Sequence record: MN850579.1
Reading direction: 5' to 3' (one strand)
From: Escherichia phage mogra
Length of the DNA: 64,000 nucleotides
Shown: positions 1,020 to 63,475 of the stretch, piece by piece
Layout: every line of letters begins with the position of its first letter
How positions within the stretch are numbered: position 1 is the stretch's first letter
Made by a program: the position numbers and the translations under genes
Notes under the pieces: model-generated
What the model was told of the DNA's origin: nothing
Databases searched by the model: none
What the model saw: only the letters and a program-made list of their open reading frames with translations

Positions 1020-1056
1020 GTTTACAACAAGATAGGGCTATGTTATAGTAGTCCTA
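1020..1056 (+). promoter_or_regulatory. early-type promoter (GTTTAC -35, TATAGT -10) with inverted repeat TAGGGCTA / TAGTCCTA bracketing the -10
   Basis: GTTTAC 1020-1025, TATAGT 1044-1049, arms 1033-1040 and 1049-1056; same module recurs at 2316, 13276, 51222. Confidence 0.5.
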
Positions 1057-1078
1057 TCAAAAACAAATGGAGTCCACA

Positions 1079-1318
1079 ATGATTTATTACGAAAGTATCG
1101 GAACCAAAGTGGTTGGTAAAACCATTACTCGTGAAAAGTTTGCAAAGATATTCGATATGCGTTATAAAAAATCTGAACACAAAGGCATCCGATTCGAAGA
1201 TGCGCACTGTACAATTTGCCCTTATAATGAAGACATAAACGGTACAATCGTTCCATTGGTAGAGGCTTCACACGATGACCTCTGGGACGAATATAATATC
1301 GCATGTCGTGAAATTTAA
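1079..1318 (+). CDS. hypothetical protein
   Basis: ATG 1079 six nt after GGAG; track start 1067 lies in the leader; 79 aa. Confidence 0.5.
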   Translation: MIYYESIGTKVVGKTITREKFAKIFDMRYKKSEHKGIRFEDAHCTICPYNEDINGTIVPLVEASHDDLWDEYNIACREI

Positions 1319-2315: not shown

Positions 2316-2352
2316 GTTTACACAATTATAGGACTATGTTATAGTAGTCCTA
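2316..2352 (+). promoter_or_regulatory. early-type promoter with palindromic -10 region (TAGGACTA N8 TAGTCCTA)
   Basis: GTTTAC 2316-2321; TATAGT 2340-2345; perfect 8-bp inverted arms 2329-2336 / 2345-2352. Confidence 0.55.
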
Positions 2353-2373
2353 CCAAAACATGAGGAGAATATT

Positions 2374-2679
2374 ATGAAATTAGGCGAAACCAACCGAATT
2401 GGTCTTTTAACAATATTTGCATCACTTTTTTACGCAACTCTTTCTGTTGCAGTATTACAAAAGGCTTACAGTATGGATGGTGTGCCTGGTTGTATATTCT
2501 TATCACCGTTTTTATTATTCGTCGGAGCTTTGTTATTATATGCCACGACTAGTTTCGACCATAATGTCTGGGTCAATTATAAACGTAAATTGACCGAAGA
2601 AGAACACGCAGAAGCTCGTAAAAAAGCTATTGAATCTACCAATCTAGAAAATTTCATTAAAGAATGTCGAGGAAAATAA
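2374..2679 (+). CDS. small membrane protein
   Basis: 101 aa, two hydrophobic helices, GAGGAG RBS; tail ...ENFIKECRGK like the ORF ending at 224. Confidence 0.55.
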   Translation: MKLGETNRIGLLTIFASLFYATLSVAVLQKAYSMDGVPGCIFLSPFLLFVGALLLYATTSFDHNVWVNYKRKLTEEEHAEARKKAIESTNLENFIKECRGK

Positions 2680-5341: not shown

Positions 5342-5395
5342 GTTTACTTCCTCCAAGGACTTTGATACTATACATCTATCAACTACTTGGAGGAA
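5342..5395 (+). promoter_or_regulatory. early-type promoter embedded in an inverted repeat that can sequester the denV SD
   Basis: GTTTAC 5342-5347; arm TTCCTCCAAG 5348-5357 between -35 and -10; complementary arm CTTGGAGGAA 5386-5395 carries the SD. Confidence 0.55.
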
Positions 5396-5398
5396 ATT

Positions 5399-5812
5399 AT
5401 GACTCGTATCAATTTGACACTTGTTTCTGAACTGACCGACCAACATCTTATGGCTGAGTATCGTGAATTACCACGCGTATTTGGTGCAGTCCGTAAACAT
5501 GTTCAAAACGGTAAACGTGTAAAGGATTTTAAAATCTCTCCAACATTTATCTTAGGCACAGGTCACGTAACATTCTTTTACGACAAACTCGAATTTTTAC
5601 GTTTACGACAAATCGAGCTAATCGCTGAATGCTTGAAACGTGGTTTCAAAATCAAGGACACGACAGTCCAGGATATTTCCGACATCCCTGCCGAATTTCG
5701 TAATAATTATGTCCCGTCTGAAGCGTCCATTGCGATAAGTCAAGCACGCTTAGATGAAAAAATTGCTCAACGTCCGACTTGGTACAAATACTATGGTAAA
5801 TCAATTTACTAA
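5399..5812 (+). CDS. denV: endonuclease V (pyrimidine dimer DNA glycosylase)
   Basis: [31 protein letters not shown]... matches recalled T4 endo V; ATG 5399 after GGAGG; 137 aa. Confidence 0.93.
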
Positions 5813-6142: not shown

Positions 6143-6721
6143 ATGAAAACGTATAAAGAATTTATCGCCGAGGCCTTTGCAGGAAAAGCTCAAGGCATTA
6201 ATAAGGACGAGTGGAATTATCGTGGCGGAAACGGCTTTGACCCTAAAACTGCTCCACTTGAACGATATCTGGCCACAAAAGCTTCTGATTTTAAAGCCTT
6301 CGCTTGGGAAGGACTACGCTGGCGTAACGATCTAAATATTGAAGTTGACGGACTTAAATTTGCTCATATTGAAGATGTTGTTGCTAGTAACTTAGACGCA
6401 GCTTTTGTTAAAGCCGACAGTGACCTTCGTCGCTGGAATTTAAAACTGTTCTCTAAACAAAAAGGCCCGAAGTTTGTGCCTAAAGCAGGTAAATGGGTCA
6501 TTGATAATAAATTAGCTAAAGCTGTCAACTACGCCGGTCTTGAATTTGCCAAGCATAAATCATCATGGAAAGGTCTTGATGCAATGGCTTTCCGTAAAGA
6601 ATTTGCCGATGTTATGGCTAAAGGCGGCTTTAAGGCAGAAATAGATACAACTAAGGGCACGTTTAAAGACGCTAATGTTCAGTACGCTTACGCCGTTGCT
6701 AATGCAGCCCGTAATTCCTAA
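6143..6721 (+). CDS. internal protein (IPIII-sized) with capsid targeting sequence
   Basis: N-terminus MKTYKEFIAEA; 192 aa, basic. Confidence 0.65.
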   Translation: MKTYKEFIAEAFAGKAQGINKDEWNYRGGNGFDPKTAPLERYLATKASDFKAFAWEGLRWRNDLNIEVDGLKFAHIEDVVASNLDAAFVKADSDLRRWNLKLFSKQKGPKFVPKAGKWVIDNKLAKAVNYAGLEFAKHKSSWKGLDAMAFRKEFADVMAKGGFKAEIDTTKGTFKDANVQYAYAVANAARNS

Positions 6722-7065: not shown

Positions 7066-7178
7066 CAGTTTACTTTCTCCTAGAATTGTGATAGTATATT
7101 CATAATTACTTGGAGGGGTAAATACAGAAATGGACAATTCATGCGCCACGGAATGGCCCAACCTAAAAGAGAAACTAA

Positions 7179-8872: not shown

Positions 8873-9171
8873 TGGCTCAAATCCTATCAGGCTTTGGAAC
8901 TCATTATGAAGCATCTAGACGCATAACTGAAAGCAATCCTTTTGGCCTTGTTCCGAAGCACAAGAAAATTCAAAGCCTTGATGACTTTGAGAACCGCCTA
9001 TGGGCCCTCTTTAATGAGTACAAGGCATATCTGAAAGAAGACGCTGACTATTGTCTTGAAGAAGATGAGATTGCGTATTACGAACAACGCCTTGAACAGC
9101 TCAAGAACTTCCGTCAGGTTCGTGACGAAGTATCTAAAGCAGTTAAAAAGTTAATTCCTTTCAAAGAGTAG
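8872..9171 (+). CDS. hypothetical protein
   Basis: TAATG-coupled start; 99 aa. Confidence 0.55.
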
Positions 9172-9221
9172 TTTACTTCTCCTCTAGTTGTGTTACTATA
9201 GACTTGTCAACTAGAGGAGAA
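9171..9221 (+). promoter_or_regulatory. early-type promoter embedded in a 14-bp inverted repeat that can sequester the regB SD
   Basis: GTTTAC 9171-9176; arm TTCTCCTCTAGTTG 9177-9190; TACTAT 9194-9199; perfect complement CAACTAGAGGAGAA 9208-9221 includes the SD. Confidence 0.6.
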
Positions 9222-9227
9222 ATCAAA

Positions 9228-9686
9228 ATGACTATCAATTCGGAAGTTTTTATCCGCCGTAATAAACTCCGTCGAATCTTTGAAACGGAGTTCCGCAAAA
9301 TAAATGCCGGTATAAAAGATGCTGCAAAGTCTCTTGGACTACCAGGCTTTCATATCAAGTATTCTCAACATCTCTTAGATCGTGCCATCCAGAGAGAAAT
9401 AGATGAGAATTACGTTTTTGAATTATTTCATAAAGTAAAAAATCATGTTAAAGAAGTTGCAGAATTTTTATCAATGCCGGCACGTCCGGATGTTGATGAA
9501 GATTTTGTCGAAGGTGTCGAATATCGCCCAGGCCGTTTAGAAATAACTGATGGAAATCTTTGGTTAGGACTTACAGTTTGTCGCGAAAATCCAGCATTCA
9601 AAATGAAGACTCTTCAATGCAGAATGGCTATTATTAACAGTAAACGACTACCAGGAAAAGCTTCTAAAGCAGTGATTAAAATCTAG
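9228..9686 (+). CDS. regB: endoribonuclease RegB
   Basis: MTINSEVFIRRNKLRR...HIKYSQHLLDRAIQREIDE...LQCRMAIINSKRLPGKASKAVIK matches recalled T4 RegB; ATG 9228 after GAGGAG. Confidence 0.9.
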   Translation: MTINSEVFIRRNKLRRIFETEFRKINAGIKDAAKSLGLPGFHIKYSQHLLDRAIQREIDENYVFELFHKVKNHVKEVAEFLSMPARPDVDEDFVEGVEYRPGRLEITDGNLWLGLTVCRENPAFKMKTLQCRMAIINSKRLPGKASKAVIKI

Positions 9687-12784: not shown

Positions 12785-12813
12785 AGCCCCTTCCGAAAGG
12801 TCGGGGCTTTTTG
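12785..12813 (+). terminator. intrinsic terminator
   Basis: Hairpin AGCCCC...GGGGCT followed by TTTTT. Confidence 0.6.
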
Positions 12814-12823
12814 GCATCTATCA

Positions 12824-12875
12824 GTTTACTTCTCCTCAGGTTGTGTTATAGTAAACCTTACTTACTAGAGGAGAA
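12824..12875 (+). promoter_or_regulatory. early-type promoter with SD-complementary upstream arm
   Basis: GTTTAC 12824-12829; arm TTCTCCTC 12830-12837; TATAGT 12847-12852; complement GAGGAGAA 12868-12875. Confidence 0.5.
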
Positions 12876-12879
12876 CGTT

Positions 12880-13059
12880 ATGTCACGTAAAGAAAAAATT
12901 TCTAAGTTAATGTTTTTGATTGAAGAGTACGCTAATGCGGTATCTGATTGGGAAAATGCTCATGGTTGCGAAGATGGAGACATCGACATTAACAGAGCTA
13001 TGAAAAAGATGGCCGACGCCCACACCGAATTGCAAATGTATGTTAACGAGATTATGTGA
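12880..13059 (+). CDS. hypothetical protein
   Basis: ATG 12880 after GAGGAG; track start 12811 lies inside the promoter; 59 aa. Confidence 0.5.
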   Translation: MSRKEKISKLMFLIEEYANAVSDWENAHGCEDGDIDINRAMKKMADAHTELQMYVNEIM

Positions 13060-13066
13060 GGATATT

Positions 13067-13276
13067 ATGCTTTACGATTATACTGGAAAATCTGAAGACG
13101 GTGTACTTGAACTTTTACCTGAAAGCGCTGAAGATGACGATATGGCGACGGTGATGTTTTGTAAAAATGGTCCCGGGGATAAGGGATGGATTTATCTTCG
13201 CCAAGAAAATGACCTAATTGTTTTAGACCCTAAACAAGTTGAAGAACTTTATCAACATTTAAAACACAATCGGTAG
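13067..13276 (+). CDS. hypothetical acidic protein
   Basis: ATG 13067 four nt after GAGGA; 69 aa. Confidence 0.5.
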   Translation: MLYDYTGKSEDGVLELLPESAEDDDMATVMFCKNGPGDKGWIYLRQENDLIVLDPKQVEELYQHLKHNR

Positions 13277-13312
13277 TTTACATCTTGGTAGGACTATGTT
13301 ATAGTAGTCCTA
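13276..13312 (+). promoter_or_regulatory. early-type promoter with palindromic -10 region
   Basis: GTTTAC 13276-13281; arms TAGGACTA 13289-13296 / TAGTCCTA 13305-13312; TATAGT 13300-13305. Confidence 0.55.
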
Positions 13313-13333
13313 TCAAAACGAACGGAGAACAAA

Positions 13334-13444
13334 ATGAAACTTTTGCTTATCGCTTATGTTGTAGTACAATACAATTATCCGATGTTTACTTATAACATGG
13401 TAAACGGCATAGTGAATCTTATTGAAACGAGTATGGTAAAATGA
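13334..13444 (+). CDS. very small hydrophobic ORF (36 aa)
   Basis: GGAGAA RBS then ATG 13334; stop overlaps next ATG (ATGA); not in supplied track. Confidence 0.25.
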   Translation: MKLLLIAYVVVQYNYPMFTYNMVNGIVNLIETSMVK

Positions 13445-15938: not shown

Positions 15939-15958
15939 GGGGACCTTCGGGTCCCTTT
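15939..15958 (+). terminator. intrinsic terminator
   Basis: GGGGACC-TTCG-GGTCCC hairpin followed by TTT. Confidence 0.6.
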
Positions 15959-16052
15959 AGGGGGTTAAAATATTTTTAAAAAGTAGTGTACATGCTTTTA
16001 GGATATGTTATTATAGACCTATCGAAACGAAATGAGTAAATTGGAGAATAAA

Positions 16053-17460: not shown

Positions 17461-17495
17461 GTTTACAAGGTCTATGGTTATGTTATTATAGACCT
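17461..17495 (+). promoter_or_regulatory. early-type promoter with inverted repeat bracketing the -10
   Basis: GTTTAC 17461-17466; arms AGGTCTAT 17468-17475 / ATAGACCT 17488-17495; TATTAT 17484-17489. Confidence 0.5.
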
Positions 17496-17516
17496 ATCAA
17501 CTACTGGAGGTAAAAC

Positions 17517-18044
17517 ATGAACGCTAAAGATATTTTCAACCTGGTAAATTATAACGACGGTAAATTTAAATCTGAAGCACAAAGTAAGTTCTTTAATGAC
17601 ATTGCTTATGGTAACGAGATTACCGTGGACGGAGGTCAGATTTTCAAATCTCGCTGGAATTGGATTGTTATCATCGATTCAGTTGGAATTGTGGAAGTCT
17701 ACAAAAACACTAACAAAAAACGTACATTATTCTGGTCTCGTGAAACTAACGAGAAGTACAAAAAGGATAAAGCATCTCGTTTATCCAAAGTAACCCAGGA
17801 AGATATCGAGTTTATCAAGAAAGATATCGAGATGTACGAAAATTTAATCGCTGAAGACCAGGCAGTACTCGATAAGTTTGATGAAATTAAAGCTTCTCTT
17901 GAAATCCCTGACTTCATGAAAGAAACAGTAAACGAACGATACGCTCTCACTTCAGAACGTATTGCAAACTATACAAAACAGAAAGCAGAACGTATTAGTA
18001 CTCTTCGGAAATTTGAAGAACGTTTAAAGACGGTTCACGCATAA
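17517..18044 (+). CDS. hypothetical protein
   Basis: GGAGG RBS; 175 aa. Confidence 0.55.
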   Translation: MNAKDIFNLVNYNDGKFKSEAQSKFFNDIAYGNEITVDGGQIFKSRWNWIVIIDSVGIVEVYKNTNKKRTLFWSRETNEKYKKDKASRLSKVTQEDIEFIKKDIEMYENLIAEDQAVLDKFDEIKASLEIPDFMKETVNERYALTSERIANYTKQKAERISTLRKFEERLKTVHA

Positions 18045-18106: not shown

Positions 18107-19102
18107 ATGAGCATTACATCTGATGCGGTAAAACATGAAATTAATGGTTTATGTGCTTCACAGATTAAAGTGTGGTTTAAAGACCATAACGATCGCAGAG
18201 CACTTAATTATGAGCAAATTGCTATCCAAGTTCATCAATTACTGGTTAGTAAATTTGATTTTCATATGCCGTCTGAAATCTATACTAATCTGCCGCGAGC
18301 ACTTATTAAAGCGTGTAAAGGTTATGGAAAATCAATGGCTGATGGAATCTTCAGCGCGCTGAATAAACTTAACGTTCTGTCGATGATTAACTCTAACAAC
18401 ATCCTGAGTAATCTAGGACGTACTGATTTGTTCGGACGTGAACAGTGTAAAATGCCTTTGAAATGGATTGTTGCTCATCTTAACGAGAACCAAACACGTT
18501 TTATGGCCGTAACAGCACGTTTACAAATGGGCCTAGATCGTCAGATGAACTTTAAAACTCATCCACGTTATTCAGGTTCAACTGACTTTTATAAATGTGA
18601 GCTTCAAAAGGTTGGTGGCAAAACTGTCTTAGTAGTTCGTGTAACGTTTGAAGGACGTCGTCAAGGATATTTTGACATAATCGGCTCTGGACTTAAACAT
18701 TGTGGATTTATCGACGAAGTTGATATCAAGCGAGACGGCATTGGATACCGTATTGGGTATGTTTGTACTCTTAAAGAAGAGATTTCAGGACCAGCTCCAG
18801 GACTAAAAGACGTTAGATATAAAGACGAGCTCGTTGAAGAAATAAAAGAAGTTGAATATGATATCAACCAAGAAGATGCTCTTAAAGACCTTATTGATGA
18901 ACTGAACCAAGACGTTATTCCGGTTCAGAAATTTGAATCAAAACATGCTGAGCAAATCAAATACTTTGAAGCTTTGATTAACGAACTTAATGTAACTATT
19001 CAACAGACTGACGATGAAATCTCACGATTAGCAGGCTTAAACGGTAAAAATAAAACAGAACGAGCTAATCTTATTCAAGTAGTAAAACTTCTTAAGGAAT
19101 GA
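18107..19102 (+). CDS. hypothetical protein with C-terminal coiled coil
   Basis: 331 aa; first of three similar-sized consecutive genes. Confidence 0.6.
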   Translation: MSITSDAVKHEINGLCASQIKVWFKDHNDRRALNYEQIAIQVHQLLVSKFDFHMPSEIYTNLPRALIKACKGYGKSMADGIFSALNKLNVLSMINSNNILSNLGRTDLFGREQCKMPLKWIVAHLNENQTRFMAVTARLQMGLDRQMNFKTHPRYSGSTDFYKCELQKVGGKTVLVVRVTFEGRRQGYFDIIGSGLKHCGFIDEVDIKRDGIGYRIGYVCTLKEEISGPAPGLKDVRYKDELVEEIKEVEYDINQEDALKDLIDELNQDVIPVQKFESKHAEQIKYFEALINELNVTIQQTDDEISRLAGLNGKNKTERANLIQVVKLLKE

Positions 19103-19131
19103 TGTACAACCAAGGATGGTTGGAGTATAAT
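19103..19131 (+). promoter_or_regulatory. promoter module TGTACA-ACCAAGGATGGTTGGAG-TATAAT
   Basis: Conserved 27-bp module also at 20098, 61105 and 61663; TATAAT 19126-19131. Confidence 0.55.
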
Positions 19132-20097: not shown

Positions 20098-20127
20098 GTT
20101 TACAACCAAGGATGGTTGGAGTATAAT
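20098..20127 (+). promoter_or_regulatory. promoter module GTTTAC-AACCAAGGATGGTTGGAG-TATAAT
   Basis: GTTTAC 20098-20103; TATAAT 20122-20127; spacer identical to the 19103 copy. Confidence 0.55.
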
Positions 20128-26906: not shown

Positions 26907-27048
26907 ATCTCATTTCTAATATAATCCATTGGAATCTTCACTTCACTATCTCCTTGTGCCCCTCTCAAATCAAAAATATTTTCATAAAACAGTTTACATC
27001 CTCAATAGATGTGTTAAGATTAAACCATCTACTATAGAGGAAAATAAA

Positions 27049-27231
27049 ATGACAATTGAAGATAAAGAAATTAAGGTTGACCAGTACTATTCTGTCAATG
27101 GTAATGCCGTACAGATAACCAGAGTTTCAAGCCTGGATGTTTGGTACCGTTCAATCAAATATCCAGAAATTGGTGAAATGCTTTGTGACCGTGGTATCTT
27201 CTGTTCAATTGCGAAGGAAATTAAGCCATGA
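27049..27231 (+). CDS. hypothetical protein
   Basis: ATG 27049 after AGAGGAAAA; track start 26929 is upstream of promoter-like sequence; 60 aa. Confidence 0.45.
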   Translation: MTIEDKEIKVDQYYSVNGNAVQITRVSSLDVWYRSIKYPEIGEMLCDRGIFCSIAKEIKP

Positions 27232-28116: not shown

Positions 28117-28185
28117 CGATTTACAAACTCTTGAGAGCAGAGTATAATGCTCTCATTGGATAATAAAATAACCGAGGAAAATAAT

Positions 28186-28518
28186 ATGTCTACTAAAATC
28201 AAAAACGTAGTTAATTCTTTCGCTTTCGATAAAGTTGTTGCTCTTCTGGAATCCGGCAATATTGTTACTCCTCAAGTTCTTGACGCGTGGGAATTCCGTC
28301 TTTATGAAATCATGCAAAAACACGACCAGAAAATTGGACGTAATTCTATTCGCGAAATTCTAGTACAATATATTCTTTCTGAATTTGACGTTGCTGCATT
28401 TGGTGTTGAATCTAAAGCTTATCAGAAACATGAAATCTCTGAAAAGACTATCCGTCGTATGAAAAATCAACGTAAGAAAAAATTCGTTGATCTGAAAATT
28501 GTTAAGGCGGTAAAATGA
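28186..28518 (+). CDS. hypothetical protein
   Basis: ATG 28186 after GAGGAAA; track ATG 28147 sits inside the -10 element; 110 aa. Confidence 0.55.
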   Translation: MSTKIKNVVNSFAFDKVVALLESGNIVTPQVLDAWEFRLYEIMQKHDQKIGRNSIREILVQYILSEFDVAAFGVESKAYQKHEISEKTIRRMKNQRKKKFVDLKIVKAVK

Positions 28519-28742: not shown

Positions 28743-28897
28743 AACTATCTCGAATCACTATAACCGAAGAAAAGTTTGGTGAATTTTAAGTCGACAACTT
28801 TATAAAAGTTACGTATCTTTGATAGTATCTCGTGCTTTAAGATAGGTCTCTAAATATTATGATATAATAGACCTATGAATTGAGCCAAGAGGTACTT

Positions 28898-36067: not shown

Positions 36068-36631
36068 ATGAACTTATTTGATGATGACGTCCAACTTAAC
36101 GAGCACCAAATTGCATGGAAGTCTAACGACGCTGATGCGATTCAAAAATGTGCTGACATGTTTAAAGAAAAACCTGAGAATGAATTCTTTAAAATCATTA
36201 ATGCTATTAATGAAAAGAAATCTATGTCAATTGCTCAGGTCGACTACTCAAAATTTATGGTTGAGAACTCATTATCCCAGTTCCCAGAATGTATGCCAGC
36301 CGTTTACATGATGAACTTAGTCGGTTCTGAATTAAGTGATGAAGCGCACTTCAACTATATGATGGCGGCAATTCCACGTGGCCGACGATTCTCTAAATGG
36401 GCTAAACTAGTCGAAGACACTTCAGAGTTACTAGTTATCAAACTGTTGATGAAACATTACACAATCAACATGAATGATGCTACCGAGTATAAGCGGCTCC
36501 TTGAAAAAAATAACAAGTTGCCAATAGTCCTTAAAGAACTGAAGGCCATGGTCACTGATGAGTTTCTCAAAGAAGTTACAAAAAATGTGAAAGAACAAAA
36601 ACAATTTAAAAAATTAGCATTGGAATGGTAA
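36068..36631 (+). CDS. 62: clamp loader small subunit gp62
   Basis: 187 aa between 44 and regA; ...[32 protein letters not shown]... matches recalled T4 gp62. Confidence 0.88.
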
Positions 36632-49452: not shown

Positions 49453-49472
49453 GGAGACTTCGGTCTCCTTTC
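49453..49472 (+). terminator. intrinsic terminator
   Basis: GGAGAC-TTCG-GTCTCC hairpin followed by TTT. Confidence 0.65.
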
Positions 49473-49534
49473 GGGGTTTACATCTTCCTCTAGGCATGAT
49501 ATGATGTACTTACACAAACCAAGAGGAAAACATT

Positions 49535-49909
49535 ATGAATATGTCTCAAGCAATTTTTACTGCAATCACCGAAAACACAACTGTTGAAGTAGTTTCTCCG
49601 CTGGCAACTTACGTTATTCTTGCTCCTAAAACTATTGTATCTCGTATGGAAAACATGGGCAAACGTATCGTACAAATTGTTGGAGCCGGAAATCAAAAAC
49701 TTGATTATCTACGAACCATCAAAGCTTATGAACATTTCCAACTCGAAAAAGGTTCTCCTATCCAGGTAGAACTCGTAAATGGTGATATCGTTCGAGCAAT
49801 GTTCCATCATTTCTATGCATTGAATGACCCATCTAAAGCGGTTCGTTTAATTGCATATGACGCAAACCAAAACGAAATCAACGCGGATATATCTAAATTA
49901 CGTTTTTAA
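49535..49909 (+). CDS. hypothetical protein
   Basis: AAGAGGAAA RBS; 124 aa. Confidence 0.55.
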   Translation: MNMSQAIFTAITENTTVEVVSPLATYVILAPKTIVSRMENMGKRIVQIVGAGNQKLDYLRTIKAYEHFQLEKGSPIQVELVNGDIVRAMFHHFYALNDPSKAVRLIAYDANQNEINADISKLRF

Positions 49910-49960
49910 GTTTACTTCTCCAGTAGTTGTGTTATTATAGACCTATCAACTACTGGAGAA
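49910..49960 (+). promoter_or_regulatory. early-type promoter embedded in a 14-bp inverted repeat that can sequester the SD
   Basis: GTTTAC 49910-49915; arm TTCTCCAGTAGTTG 49916-49929; TATTAT 49933-49938; perfect complement CAACTACTGGAGAA 49947-49960. Confidence 0.6.
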
Positions 49961-49964
49961 CAAA

Positions 49965-50282
49965 ATGAAAACCATCGATTGTAAAGCAGAATTTAAGATT
50001 TTTTATCACGGTTCAAGTAGTTCAGCTAACATCGAAAACATGCTTTGTCCTCCTGAAGAAACAGGAGTTCTGTCTGAAACTGGACGTAAGAAAAACTTGG
50101 ATCGTGTATTCTTTACTGAAGATATCGGTTTAGCAAAGATTTATGCAGGACGAGCAGCACGCTCTTATGGAGGTGAACCACGTCTCTATCGAGTAATTTC
50201 TCCGGTAGATGTAGTTCAAATGAATGATACTAAAGGCGCTACAGTTTATCACGCTGAATGGGCATTTTGCGAGGAAATATGA
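49965..50282 (+). CDS. hypothetical protein
   Basis: 105 aa. Confidence 0.55.
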   Translation: MKTIDCKAEFKIFYHGSSSSANIENMLCPPEETGVLSETGRKKNLDRVFFTEDIGLAKIYAGRAARSYGGEPRLYRVISPVDVVQMNDTKGATVYHAEWAFCEEI

Positions 50283-51221: not shown

Positions 51222-51256
51222 GTTTACATTATAGATGGACTATAGTATAGTAGTCC
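51222..51256 (+). promoter_or_regulatory. early-type promoter with palindromic -10 region
   Basis: GTTTAC 51222-51227; arms GGACTA 51237-51242 / TAGTCC 51251-51256; TATAGT 51246-51251. Confidence 0.5.
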
Positions 51257-51280
51257 TATCAAATCAACTAAGGAGTTAAA

Positions 51281-51574
51281 ATGAAAAAGTTATCATTGGC
51301 AGCAATCTTACTTGCAGTATCATGTGCACCGGCTCCAGTTACGGCAGGTTATGATAAAGACCTCTGTGAGTGGTCAATGACTGCAAATCAAGAAGATGTT
51401 GAACAACAAATCTTCTCTGATATCATGAACATCACTAAACGAGACCGTCCTAATATGGTTAATAAAGTTGTTGAACAACTTAAGTCTGGCGGTATCATGC
51501 AGTACAACTATGTTTTGTATTGTGACCCTAATTTCGATAACAAAGATATCGTAACCGAAATCACAGGTGAATAA
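51281..51574 (+). CDS. sp: spackle periplasmic protein
   Basis: Signal peptide MKKLSLAAILLAVSCA then ...GYDKDLCEWSMTANQEDVEQQ...SGGIMQYNYVLYCD... matches recalled T4 Sp; 97 aa. Confidence 0.8.
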   Translation: MKKLSLAAILLAVSCAPAPVTAGYDKDLCEWSMTANQEDVEQQIFSDIMNITKRDRPNMVNKVVEQLKSGGIMQYNYVLYCDPNFDNKDIVTEITGE

Positions 51575-61104: not shown

Positions 61105-61134
61105 GTTTACAACCAAGGACGGCTGGAGTATAAT
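61105..61134 (+). promoter_or_regulatory. promoter module GTTTAC-AACCAAGGACGGCTGGAG-TATAAT
   Basis: Variant (2 mismatches) of the 19103/20098/61663 module; TATAAT 61129-61134. Confidence 0.5.
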
Positions 61135-61662: not shown

Positions 61663-61691
61663 TGTACAACCAAGGATGGTTGGAGTATAAT
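61663..61691 (+). promoter_or_regulatory. promoter module TGTACA-ACCAAGGATGGTTGGAG-TATAAT
   Basis: Identical spacer to the 19103 and 20098 copies; TATAAT 61686-61691. Confidence 0.55.
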
Positions 61692-62610: not shown

Positions 62611-62661
62611 GTTTACTTCTCCTCCGGTTTTGATATTATAACCATATCAACCAGAGGAGAA
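62611..62661 (+). promoter_or_regulatory. early-type promoter embedded in an inverted repeat that can sequester the SD
   Basis: GTTTAC 62611-62616; arm TTCTCCTCCGGTT 62617-62629; TATTAT 62634-62639; complement AACCAGAGGAGAA 62649-62661 (one mismatch). Confidence 0.55.
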
Positions 62662-62665
62662 TAAT

Positions 62666-63190
62666 ATGTTAGTTTATCGCGTAGAACGTAGTTTTTGTAC
62701 TCAACGTGAATCATTACCAGGAATTGCTATCGAAGATGGTAAAGCCGTCAGAATTTGGGAAACCTCTTGGAATAAAGAACCTCGCTCGCCATACGGTTGG
62801 TCGGGCACCGACAACTCTGAAGAAACATGGGAGTTCCTTGATAAGCATGGAATACTCTCAGGTAACTTCTACCATCACGGCGACAACTATAATGTCCCTA
62901 ATCGTCCTACAGTAAATGAAGACAAACTCCTTGAACAAAATATCTTAAGATACCATAGAATTGAGCACACATTTGAATTGAGTGAAGATTGGGCTCAAGG
63001 GTTCTATTTTGGATTTGAAAGTGTTGACGCGGTTTATGCATGGTTTGATGACCAGGTGGATGTTGAACTCTTGAAAGCTAAAGGATACTACATCGCGGTC
63101 TATGAAGCACCTGATTTCATCCTCGGAAGTTGTCAATTAATGTTCAGACGTTCATTGGCAGAACAAGTTGATTTTATTTTGCTAAAATGA
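62666..63190 (+). CDS. hypothetical protein
   Basis: 174 aa. Confidence 0.55.
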   Translation: MLVYRVERSFCTQRESLPGIAIEDGKAVRIWETSWNKEPRSPYGWSGTDNSEETWEFLDKHGILSGNFYHHGDNYNVPNRPTVNEDKLLEQNILRYHRIEHTFELSEDWAQGFYFGFESVDAVYAWFDDQVDVELLKAKGYYIAVYEAPDFILGSCQLMFRRSLAEQVDFILLK

Positions 63191-63247
63191 TGTACAACAA
63201 CTGTGGTCTATGATACTATAGACCTATCAAAACAAGAGGAGAATATT

Positions 63248-63475
63248 ATGAAACGTCAAATCATTAAAAACGTAACTACTGATTCAAACATCGATGAGTT
63301 TGAAGATGTTCTGTTTAATCCTGATTTAGTTGTTGTACAGAAAAACTGGACCGAATTTTTATGCTACACCGAAGTGGTTTACGTTTACGAAAAACTCGGT
63401 GACGAAATGCCTATCTATGGTATCTTCCGTGAAATCACTGAAAACGGTACAACTTATTGGAAGGAAACTTACTAA
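63248..63475 (+). CDS. hypothetical protein
   Basis: ATG 63248 after AGAGGAG; 75 aa; track start 63203 is inside the promoter. Confidence 0.5.

Follow-up and report, generated by a model that had tools for sequence, protein, structure and literature searches.

Predicted early-promoter cassettes of the PeSL type carry a -10-bracketing inverted repeat with conserved pairing in an RB69-like phage

Our analysis of a 64 kb stretch of phage DNA (hereafter, the window) identified four copies of a short early-promoter cassette in which an inverted repeat brackets the -10 element, and comparison with the sequences of other T4-like phages showed that the pairing between the two arms is kept by compensatory substitutions. 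The cassettes are not a new kind of system: at the level of sequence they are of the PeSL type, all of the PeSL features that we examined being present. We consider it probable that the repeat forms a hairpin on read-through RNA, selected for its structure and acting as a boundary element, and that the promoter cassette around it doubles as a portable patch of homology; an action of the hairpin on RNA and the effect that it would have there are steps that we infer.

These results extend the PeSL class to an RB69-like phage. Relative to the published descriptions (PMC2839356, PMC4122927), two features are apparently new, namely a -10-bracketing stem in a fixed register and compensatory pairing across genera that reaches an Acinetobacter phage. 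In addition, the comparison provides a clean case of a one-gene indel joined at a cassette. Should transcription-unit boundaries indeed be marked by the hairpin, this would matter for the study of T4-like early transcriptomes and for phage engineering.

Four paralogous cassettes with a palindrome over the -10

The first 12 kb of the window are 96-98% identical to Mosigvirus (RB69-like) T4-type phages. The gene order on the + strand in this region (e.x, nudE, e, denV, ipII, vs.x, regB, vs, tk) identifies this strand as the direction of early transcription, and rI, ORFs of the mobD region, gene 41 and spackle are found farther along. The initial annotation had reported a palindrome at four early promoters, and a window-wide scan bears this out: AGGACTA-N8-TAGTCCT, with up to two mismatches allowed, has exactly four matches, at 1034, 2330, 13290 and 51236, all on the + strand, whereas 100 dinucleotide-preserving shuffles gave 0.14 matches on average and never more than one. 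Elsewhere in the window, isolated half-sites are about as frequent as expected by chance (AGGACTA at 6310 and 18799, TAGTCCT at 36525; 3-5 expected). The four copies are paralogous cassettes that have about 60 nt in common from the -35 to the ATG and unrelated upstream flanks, so that the excess over chance reflects a repeated element rather than four independent palindromes.

As had also been claimed, the repeat brackets the -10 of an early promoter in each case, all four copies lying in TTTACA-N17-TATAGT with a TG-extended -10. This promoter form (GTTTACA, 17 bp, TGT-TATAGT) has 10 of 12 consensus matches and is predicted to be a strong promoter of the sigma-70 early type; it is preceded by an A/T-rich region, as in PeSLs. 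The left arm corresponds to the promoter spacer (about -23 to -16) and the right arm begins at the last T of the -10 and extends to about +1 (about -7 to +1), which places the -10 in the loop; with arms of 6-10 bp and the -10 inside an 8-nt loop, the sites agree with the PeSL arrangement of an inverted repeat in or next to the promoter. Transcription presumably starts at the A of a conserved ATCAA, 7 nt past the -10.

Cassette 1 (1020..1081, +) has its -35, GTTTACA, at 1020-1026, its -10, TATAGT, at 1044-1049, a GGAG Shine-Dalgarno sequence (SD) and an ATG at 1079. Its arms, GATAGGGCTA (1031-1040) and TAGTCCTATC (1049-1058), flank the loop TGTTATAG (1041-1048), and the RNA hairpin has a predicted energy of -16.1 kcal/mol (z = -3.75). 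The gene downstream (1079..1318, +) encodes a 79 amino acid protein of unknown function (phrog_3723). In cassette 2 (2316..2376, +) the -35 is at 2316-2322, the -10 at 2340-2345, the SD is GAGGAG and the ATG is at 2374, with arms TAGGACTA (2329-2336) and TAGTCCTA (2345-2352) around a loop at 2337-2344; the downstream gene (2374..2679, +) encodes a 101 amino acid protein that weakly matches a membrane-protein family (phrog_9798), and a search for related loci with this protein returned only two. Cassette 3 (13276..13336, +; -35 at 13276-13282, -10 at 13300-13305, SD GGAG, ATG at 13334) precedes a hydrophobic small ORF of 36 amino acids (13334..13444, +) that is the positional counterpart of mobD.2 in T4-type phages. 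Its arms, (GG)TAGGACTA (13287-13296) and TAGTCCTA(TC) (13305-13314), include a perfect 8 bp stem (13289-13296/13305-13312) around a loop at 13297-13304, with a predicted RNA energy of -18.0 kcal/mol (z = -4.08). Finally, cassette 4 (51222..51283, +; -35 at 51222-51228, -10 at 51246-51251, SD AGGAG, ATG at 51281) has the arms GGACTA (51237-51242) and TAGTCC (51251-51256) around the loop TAGTATAG (51243-51250), and lies upstream of spackle (sp; 51281..51574, +), which encodes a 97 amino acid periplasmic superinfection-exclusion protein.

These arms confirm that some copies carry one mismatch or are shorter, cassette 1 pairing over 10 positions with one G.T and cassette 4 over 6 bp. Arms of up to 9 bp, as initially annotated, are an overstatement: the perfect arms of cassettes 2 and 3 are 8 bp long, and no site has the 9-bp pair ATAGGACTA/TAGTCCTAT. 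Similarly, the spans first given mark real sites and are wider than the repeat, 2316..2352 for example extending from the -35 through the end of the right arm.

Related pairs are present where they had been placed. The cassette at 17461..17520 (+) has the arms AGGTCUAUGGU/AUUAUAGACCU with the core AGGTCTAT (17468-17475) and ATAGACCT (17488-17495), and its read-through RNA is predicted to fold at -21.2 kcal/mol (z = -3.88) with an outer helix formed by upstream sequence and the SD. The cassette at 63190..63250 (+) carries GGTCTAT/ATAGACC (63205-63211/63218-63224), that is, a swapped central pair in the same register (GGTCTA-N8-TAGACC, 63205-63210/63219-63224). A further promoter (28119..28190, +) has the same geometry with unrelated arms, TGAGAGCA (28132-28139) and TGCTCTCA (28148-28155), on either side of an 8-nt loop. 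Another copy of a -10 followed by the AGACCTA right-arm consensus, TATAATAGACCTA at 28863-28875, was missed by the promoter pattern.

The window contains about 30 early promoters, of which four plus two are of the palindrome type, in the e-tk, mobD and 41-61 regions. As in PeSLs, the cassettes are concentrated among small variable genes and are intergenic between co-oriented genes (upstream ORF ends at 1015, 2303, 13276 and 51217; downstream ATGs at 1079, 2374, 13334 and 51281). In RB69 itself, 57 early promoters have been predicted, with C-rich positions -3 to -1 and no mention of a palindrome (Nolan et al., 2006).

Conservation of pairing among T4-like phages

We scanned IMG/VR with the pattern GTTTAC-N15-TGTTATAGT, which leaves the arms unconstrained. 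Matches from T4-like phages carry other arms in the same register, including TAGGGTCA/TGACCCTA, AGGGCCA/TGGCCCT, GATAGGGCTA/TAGCCCTATC and GGATTA/TAGTCC. Pooling these matches with the results of three more scans of viral sequences and one of metagenomes, and with several GenBank loci, yielded 940 unique candidate promoters; 51 of them have at least six of seven Watson-Crick pairs in the arm-N8-arm register, compared with only 3-6 of the 940 when the register is slid by 1-3 nt. Within this pool, the comparison shows a specific enrichment of the arm-N8-arm register among T4-like early promoters. The 51 paired promoters comprise 31 distinct arm pairs, with arms of 7-10 bp and the 8-nt loop kept.

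Covariation was analyzed in an alignment of 41 promoters picked irrespective of their arms. In this alignment 67.7% of the cells are paired, compared with 55.2 +/- 1.9 after shuffling (0 of 500 shuffles as high), and the covariation score is 0.395, compared with 0.224 after shuffling (0 of 500) and 0.145-0.177 in slid registers; kinship among many of these sequences inflates the shuffle statistics, and the slid registers are controls that retain this kinship. At the orthologous mobD.2 promoter, the window has TAGGACTA/TAGTCCTA and the T4-type phage RB18 has CAAGGTTA/TAATCTTG, a difference of three compensatory pairs and one G.U. States with a G.U pair also lie between perfect variants (e.g., AGGGTCA/TGGCCCT and AGGGTTA/TAGCCCT), and the genome of the window alone has several arm sequences in one register (GGACTA, GGTCTA and GAGAGCA).

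The conserved register extends to Acinetobacter phage Acj61, which belongs to a different subfamily and has GATAGGACTA-TGTTATAA-TGGTCCTATC with one U.G. The Acj61 cassette, GTTTACTTTTTGATAGGACTATGTTATAATGGTCCTATCAAAAC (locus L124, 1505-1565; about 49480-49545 in NC_014661), has 89% identity over 46 nt, lies 5' of an annotated DNA-binding protein gene and has flanks unrelated to those of the window. This likeness points either to strong constraint or to horizontal spread of the cassette.

Taking into account that the geometry is kept while the arm sequences drift with compensatory changes, a base-paired hairpin is favoured over one fixed operator. The initial annotation had leaned towards a binding site for a dimeric DNA-binding protein. 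In its fixed form this proposal was rejected on the arm diversity and the covariation, in that several arm sequences share one register within a genome and no single half-site is conserved at all sites; one sequence-specific dimeric protein cannot explain several arms in one genome, and a base-paired structure can.

Stem geometries at other early promoters

Around 30 early promoters of the window were aligned on their -10. In 12 of 31 (about 40%), the -10 is enclosed by a perfect stem of 7 bp or longer, compared with about 10% in controls whose left and right halves come from different promoters. Two geometries were distinguished. The first, a short stem with an 8-nt loop round the -10, comprises the four sites, GGTCTA/TAGACC at 63205 and TGAGAGCA/TGCTCTCA at 28132. 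In the second, the spacer (TTCTCCTC...) pairs with the downstream SD (GAGGAGAA), as seen at 5342-5415, 9171-9232 (regB), 12824-12895, 49910-49967 and 62611-62680, and also at 26992-27065. The spacer sequence just after the -35 of these promoters (such as TTCTCCTCTAGTTG) matches the reverse complement of the SD region (CAACTAGAGGAGAA), the match being perfect over 8-14 bp at the five main promoters, and shorter and interrupted at 26992. The SD of the second geometry would be maskable only in read-through RNA and free in RNA from the own promoter, and from this arrangement translational masking appears to be its evident role.

Folding on read-through RNA

An RNA hairpin had been disfavoured at first on the ground that the repeat lies mostly outside the transcript. 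The premise holds for RNA from the own promoter, which, with a start at the A of ATCAA, would lack the hairpin, and it overlooks read-through RNA. The hairpins lie 15-27 nt beyond the upstream stop codons, all flanking genes are co-oriented and a terminator scan found no intrinsic terminator between the upstream genes and the hairpins, a setting that makes read-through likely; such RNA would contain both arms, and an RNA hairpin is plausible in it. The intergenic RNA at the four sites is predicted to fold with energies of -12 to -18 kcal/mol and z-scores as low as about -4, compared with -5 to -7 kcal/mol and z of about -1 to -2 for the same hairpins as DNA. Among arm pairs with a single non-Watson-Crick combination, 12 are G.U and 5 are A.C on the sense strand (one-sided binomial p about 0.07), and the close relative PNJ-6 has a C.A mismatch. 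The evidence leans to selection on the sense-strand RNA, and, given the 12:5 count and the PNJ-6 mismatch, it does not cleanly separate RNA-level from DNA-level selection.

The hairpins resemble Rho-independent terminators in being stable and in ending the upstream unit, and differ from them in that AUCAAAAC, without a U tract, follows; with this tail, they are not canonical intrinsic terminators. A role as intrinsic terminators was rejected on the absence of a U tract (the sequence after the hairpin is ATCAAAAC), and the terminator scan called none of the four sites. Masking of the SD was also rejected at the four sites: the 3' arm stops short of the SD and AUG, and minimum-energy folding leaves the SD free at sites 1-3 and pairs it weakly at site 4. 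Since the SD stays unpaired, translational masking is not the role of sites 1-3. A search of Rfam 15 gave no match at the gathering score anywhere in the 64 kb, and no transcript-end map of T4 or RB69 turned up in the literature searched.

Recombination junctions at the cassettes

The other proposal of the initial annotation, a recombination hotspot, fits the comparative data, as homology breaks at or inside cassettes. The clearest case is PECP20 (locus L565, 624-885), which has an extra 263 bp at site 2, consisting of the remainder of a cassette of the AGGTCT...AGACCT type, an ORF of 66 codons and the beginning of an AGGACTA cassette; it aligns to the window in two parts, whose overlap is exactly the GTTTACA at 2316-2322, the -35 of site 2. 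Three other close relatives (PNJ-6, LF82-41 and DCP548) have the same extra length, which is missing from the window. This is the pattern that would be expected from recombination between tandem cassettes, with deletion or insertion of an ORF plus a cassette. At a related locus (L122) that has a different upstream gene, homology starts at 2327, inside cassette 2.

In relatives with more than 92% identity, other junctions map to 133 (+1 from a -35), 9161 (9 nt before the -35 of regB) and 7116-7140 (just past another cassette). Homology to T4-type phages starts at 13274-13276, at the -35 of site 3, and at site 4 it starts at positions from the -35 (51222) onward. Between close relatives, indel and replacement junctions thus fall in the cassettes in the genomes compared (2316-2322, 2327, 133, 9161, 13276), as they do in PeSLs; the mapped junctions lie in the -35 and spacer, not in the stem or loop.

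It should be noted that part of this association is expected in any case, since gene-sized indels end in intergenic DNA, which here consists mostly of promoter cassettes. In a global comparison of BLAST alignment ends with the retrieved loci, 39 of 409 ends fall at cassettes, which make up 3.6% of the sequence, a 2.7-fold excess that is confounded by gene boundaries and divergent matches, and for this reason we used the junctions in close relatives instead. Two of three cassette-bearing queries matched 4-7 places per related genome by BLAST, and the third mostly one. In PNJ-6 (locus L441, 1838-2198) and RPN187 (L444), about 100 nt of the window (13137-13235) give way to about 360 nt that contain additional small ORFs. 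This replacement was rejected as a junction of the site-3 cassette, as its right end in PNJ-6 lies about 40 nt upstream of the cassette -35 and so outside it.

Comparison with known systems

PeSLs were described with subclasses in which the stem-loop lies between the -35 and -10 or over the -10, with G-T pairs in the stems; one such stem-loop cut downstream lacZ as strongly as rrnB T1, and PeSLs were found to recombine, forming mini-circles (Arbiol 2010, PMC2839356, who also cite Mosig's deletions at GGGC/GCCC inverted repeats). The class was later extended to T4/PST, with AGNA-loop-TCNT stems, and to KVP40/nt-1 (Comeau 2014, PMC4122927). The units of the window share with PeSLs the intergenic order of stop codon, A/T-rich stretch, sigma-70 early promoter, stem-loop, SD and ATG, a stem-loop that may lie over the -10 and tolerates G-T pairs, clustering among small non-essential genes, and indels and replacements between close relatives that join at the elements; the AGNA-loop-TCNT form of T4/PST also fits the AGGA...TCCT found here. 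They differ in their host genome, RB69-like phages not being among those for which PeSLs are published (RB49/phi1, T4/PST and KVP40/nt-1; PMC2839356, PMC4122927), and in their stems, which are about 50% GC and predicted only, whereas those of RB49 are rich in G/C (GGGG...CCCC), with a reduction of lacZ expression demonstrated for one of them. Moreover, a figure legend for PST puts the stems just upstream of the promoter, and here they bracket the -10.

The repeats of the T-even IP locus (Repoila et al. 1994, as summarized in PMC2839356) are likewise based on early promoters with stem-loops and flank small variable genes for which shuffling was proposed; in that summary, on which rather than on sequence the likeness rests, their stem-loops are described as weaker and AT-richer.

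The cassettes also resemble the hairpins that sequester ribosome-binding sites at T4 e, soc, 49 and I-TevI and at Aeh1 mobE, in which a promoter lies inside an inverted repeat and only read-through RNA folds; the difference lies in the 3' arm, which at the four sites ends before the SD and AUG. Classical hairpins of that kind involve late promoters.

Proposed role and alternatives

In the reading that we prefer, the unit of about 60 nt comprises an A-rich upstream stretch, a sigma-70 early promoter (GTTTACA/17 bp/TGn-TATAGT), the embedded inverted repeat, and an SD with ATG. RNA from the own promoter would begin past the hairpin, whereas read-through RNA from an upstream co-oriented promoter would carry both arms and fold an 8-13 bp hairpin, whose 3' edge would coincide with the start of the next transcription unit. 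On read-through RNA the hairpin may thus serve as a boundary element, either attenuating read-through, an option modelled on the measurement of the PeSL authors for one RB49-type stem-loop, or protecting and insulating the upstream message. The conserved cassette would at the same time offer a short portable homology patch, at which T4-type recombination could insert, delete or swap small genes between cassettes.

Two alternatives that dispense with a role on RNA are unlikely, in our view, to about the same degree. The hairpin could act in DNA, as a hairpin or cruciform that starts recombination, for example through structure-specific cleavage, with any RNA role incidental. The junctions in or beside cassettes would agree with this, covariation is equally expected for a DNA hairpin and the PeSL authors speculated on a DNA-binding or recombination protein at the stem-loop (PMC2839356); however, the DNA hairpins are weak in prediction and 8-bp arms with an 8-nt loop extrude poorly, the mapped junctions lie outside stem and loop, the sense strand has a mild excess of G.U, and short plain homology is quoted in the literature as sufficient for T4 recombination (Singer 1982). 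The other alternative is that the palindrome has no function of its own and was inherited with the duplicated cassette, the match of the left arm being kept by templated quasi-palindrome correction during replication. In favour of this, templated quasi-palindrome mutation, associated with Ripley, is reportedly classic T4 biology. For the absence of function also speaks the right arm, most of which is promoter consensus (AGNCCTATCAA): five sites have ATAGACCT running into the ATC of the start-site consensus, three of the five without a matching left arm and four of the five being listed early promoters, RB69 early promoters favour C at -3 to -1 (Nolan 2006), and all copies may descend from a single ancestral cassette. 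Against it, the repeat keeps its register to the -10 in spite of very different arms and several -10 variants, pairing persists between genera and subfamilies, and stems of at least 7 bp round the -10 are far more frequent in the window than in the cross-paired controls.

Readings that centre on regulation of the promoter or of translation are less probable again. An operator for a dimeric DNA-binding protein, such as a repressor over the -10 that blocks RNA polymerase at early promoters, we regard as very unlikely. Its half-site centres lie 15 bp, or about 1.4 helical turns, apart, a spacing that is unusual for helix-turn-helix dimers. The symmetric site does overlap the -10 and +1, its AGGACTA version is strongly conserved even in Acj61, and the mechanism by which T4 early promoters are shut off is stated to be unknown (Hinton 2010; Uzan and Miller 2010); yet the palindrome is found in only 4-6 of the roughly 30 early promoters, isolated half-sites are not enriched in the window, and unrelated arms occupy the same register within the genome, with 31 compensating arm pairs across phages. 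A phage factor that reads shape, in DNA or in nascent read-through RNA, and so controls a subset of early promoters and aids their shut-off, would explain the kept geometry together with the free drift in sequence; because the reviews leave shut-off unexplained, we allow a slight chance for such a structure-reading factor. The least probable reading is sequestering of the ribosome-binding site, by which the gene would be translated only from its own-promoter transcript, as in T4 e, soc and I-TevI. Spacer-SD pairing at other promoters of the window (near 5342, 9171 at regB, 12824, 49910 and 62611) and the outer helix of the 17461 cassette, which reaches the SD, are in its favour; at the four sites, however, the right arm ends at about +1 with the SD 15-25 nt farther on, and the folds leave the SD unpaired at sites 1-3, with only weak pairing at site 4.

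Additional hairpins and motifs of the window

The loop and extended -10 at 1041-1049, 2337-2345 and 13297-13305 contain UGUUAU within AUGUUAUAG, a 6-mer in common with the RegA SELEX consensus AAAAUUGUUAUGUAA as quoted in Uzan and Miller 2010; the overlap is probably a coincidence of the TGn-TATA motif.

A four-copy promoter family (19102-19131, 20098-20127, 61105-61134 and 61663-61691) has ACAACCAAGGATGGTTGGAGTATAAT in common, with GGACGGCTGG in one copy. This family forms a small hairpin, AACCA-AGGA-TGGTT, wholly within the spacer, and corresponds to another PeSL subclass.

Finally, terminator-like G+C-rich hairpins followed by T runs lie directly 5' of early promoters at 12791-12816, 15950-15976 and about 49462-49476. 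Of these, the terminator scan called the first two; the third, GGTCTCCTTTCGGGG, was identified by eye only. The classical arrangement of a terminator followed by a promoter coexists in the window with the -10-bracketing hairpins.
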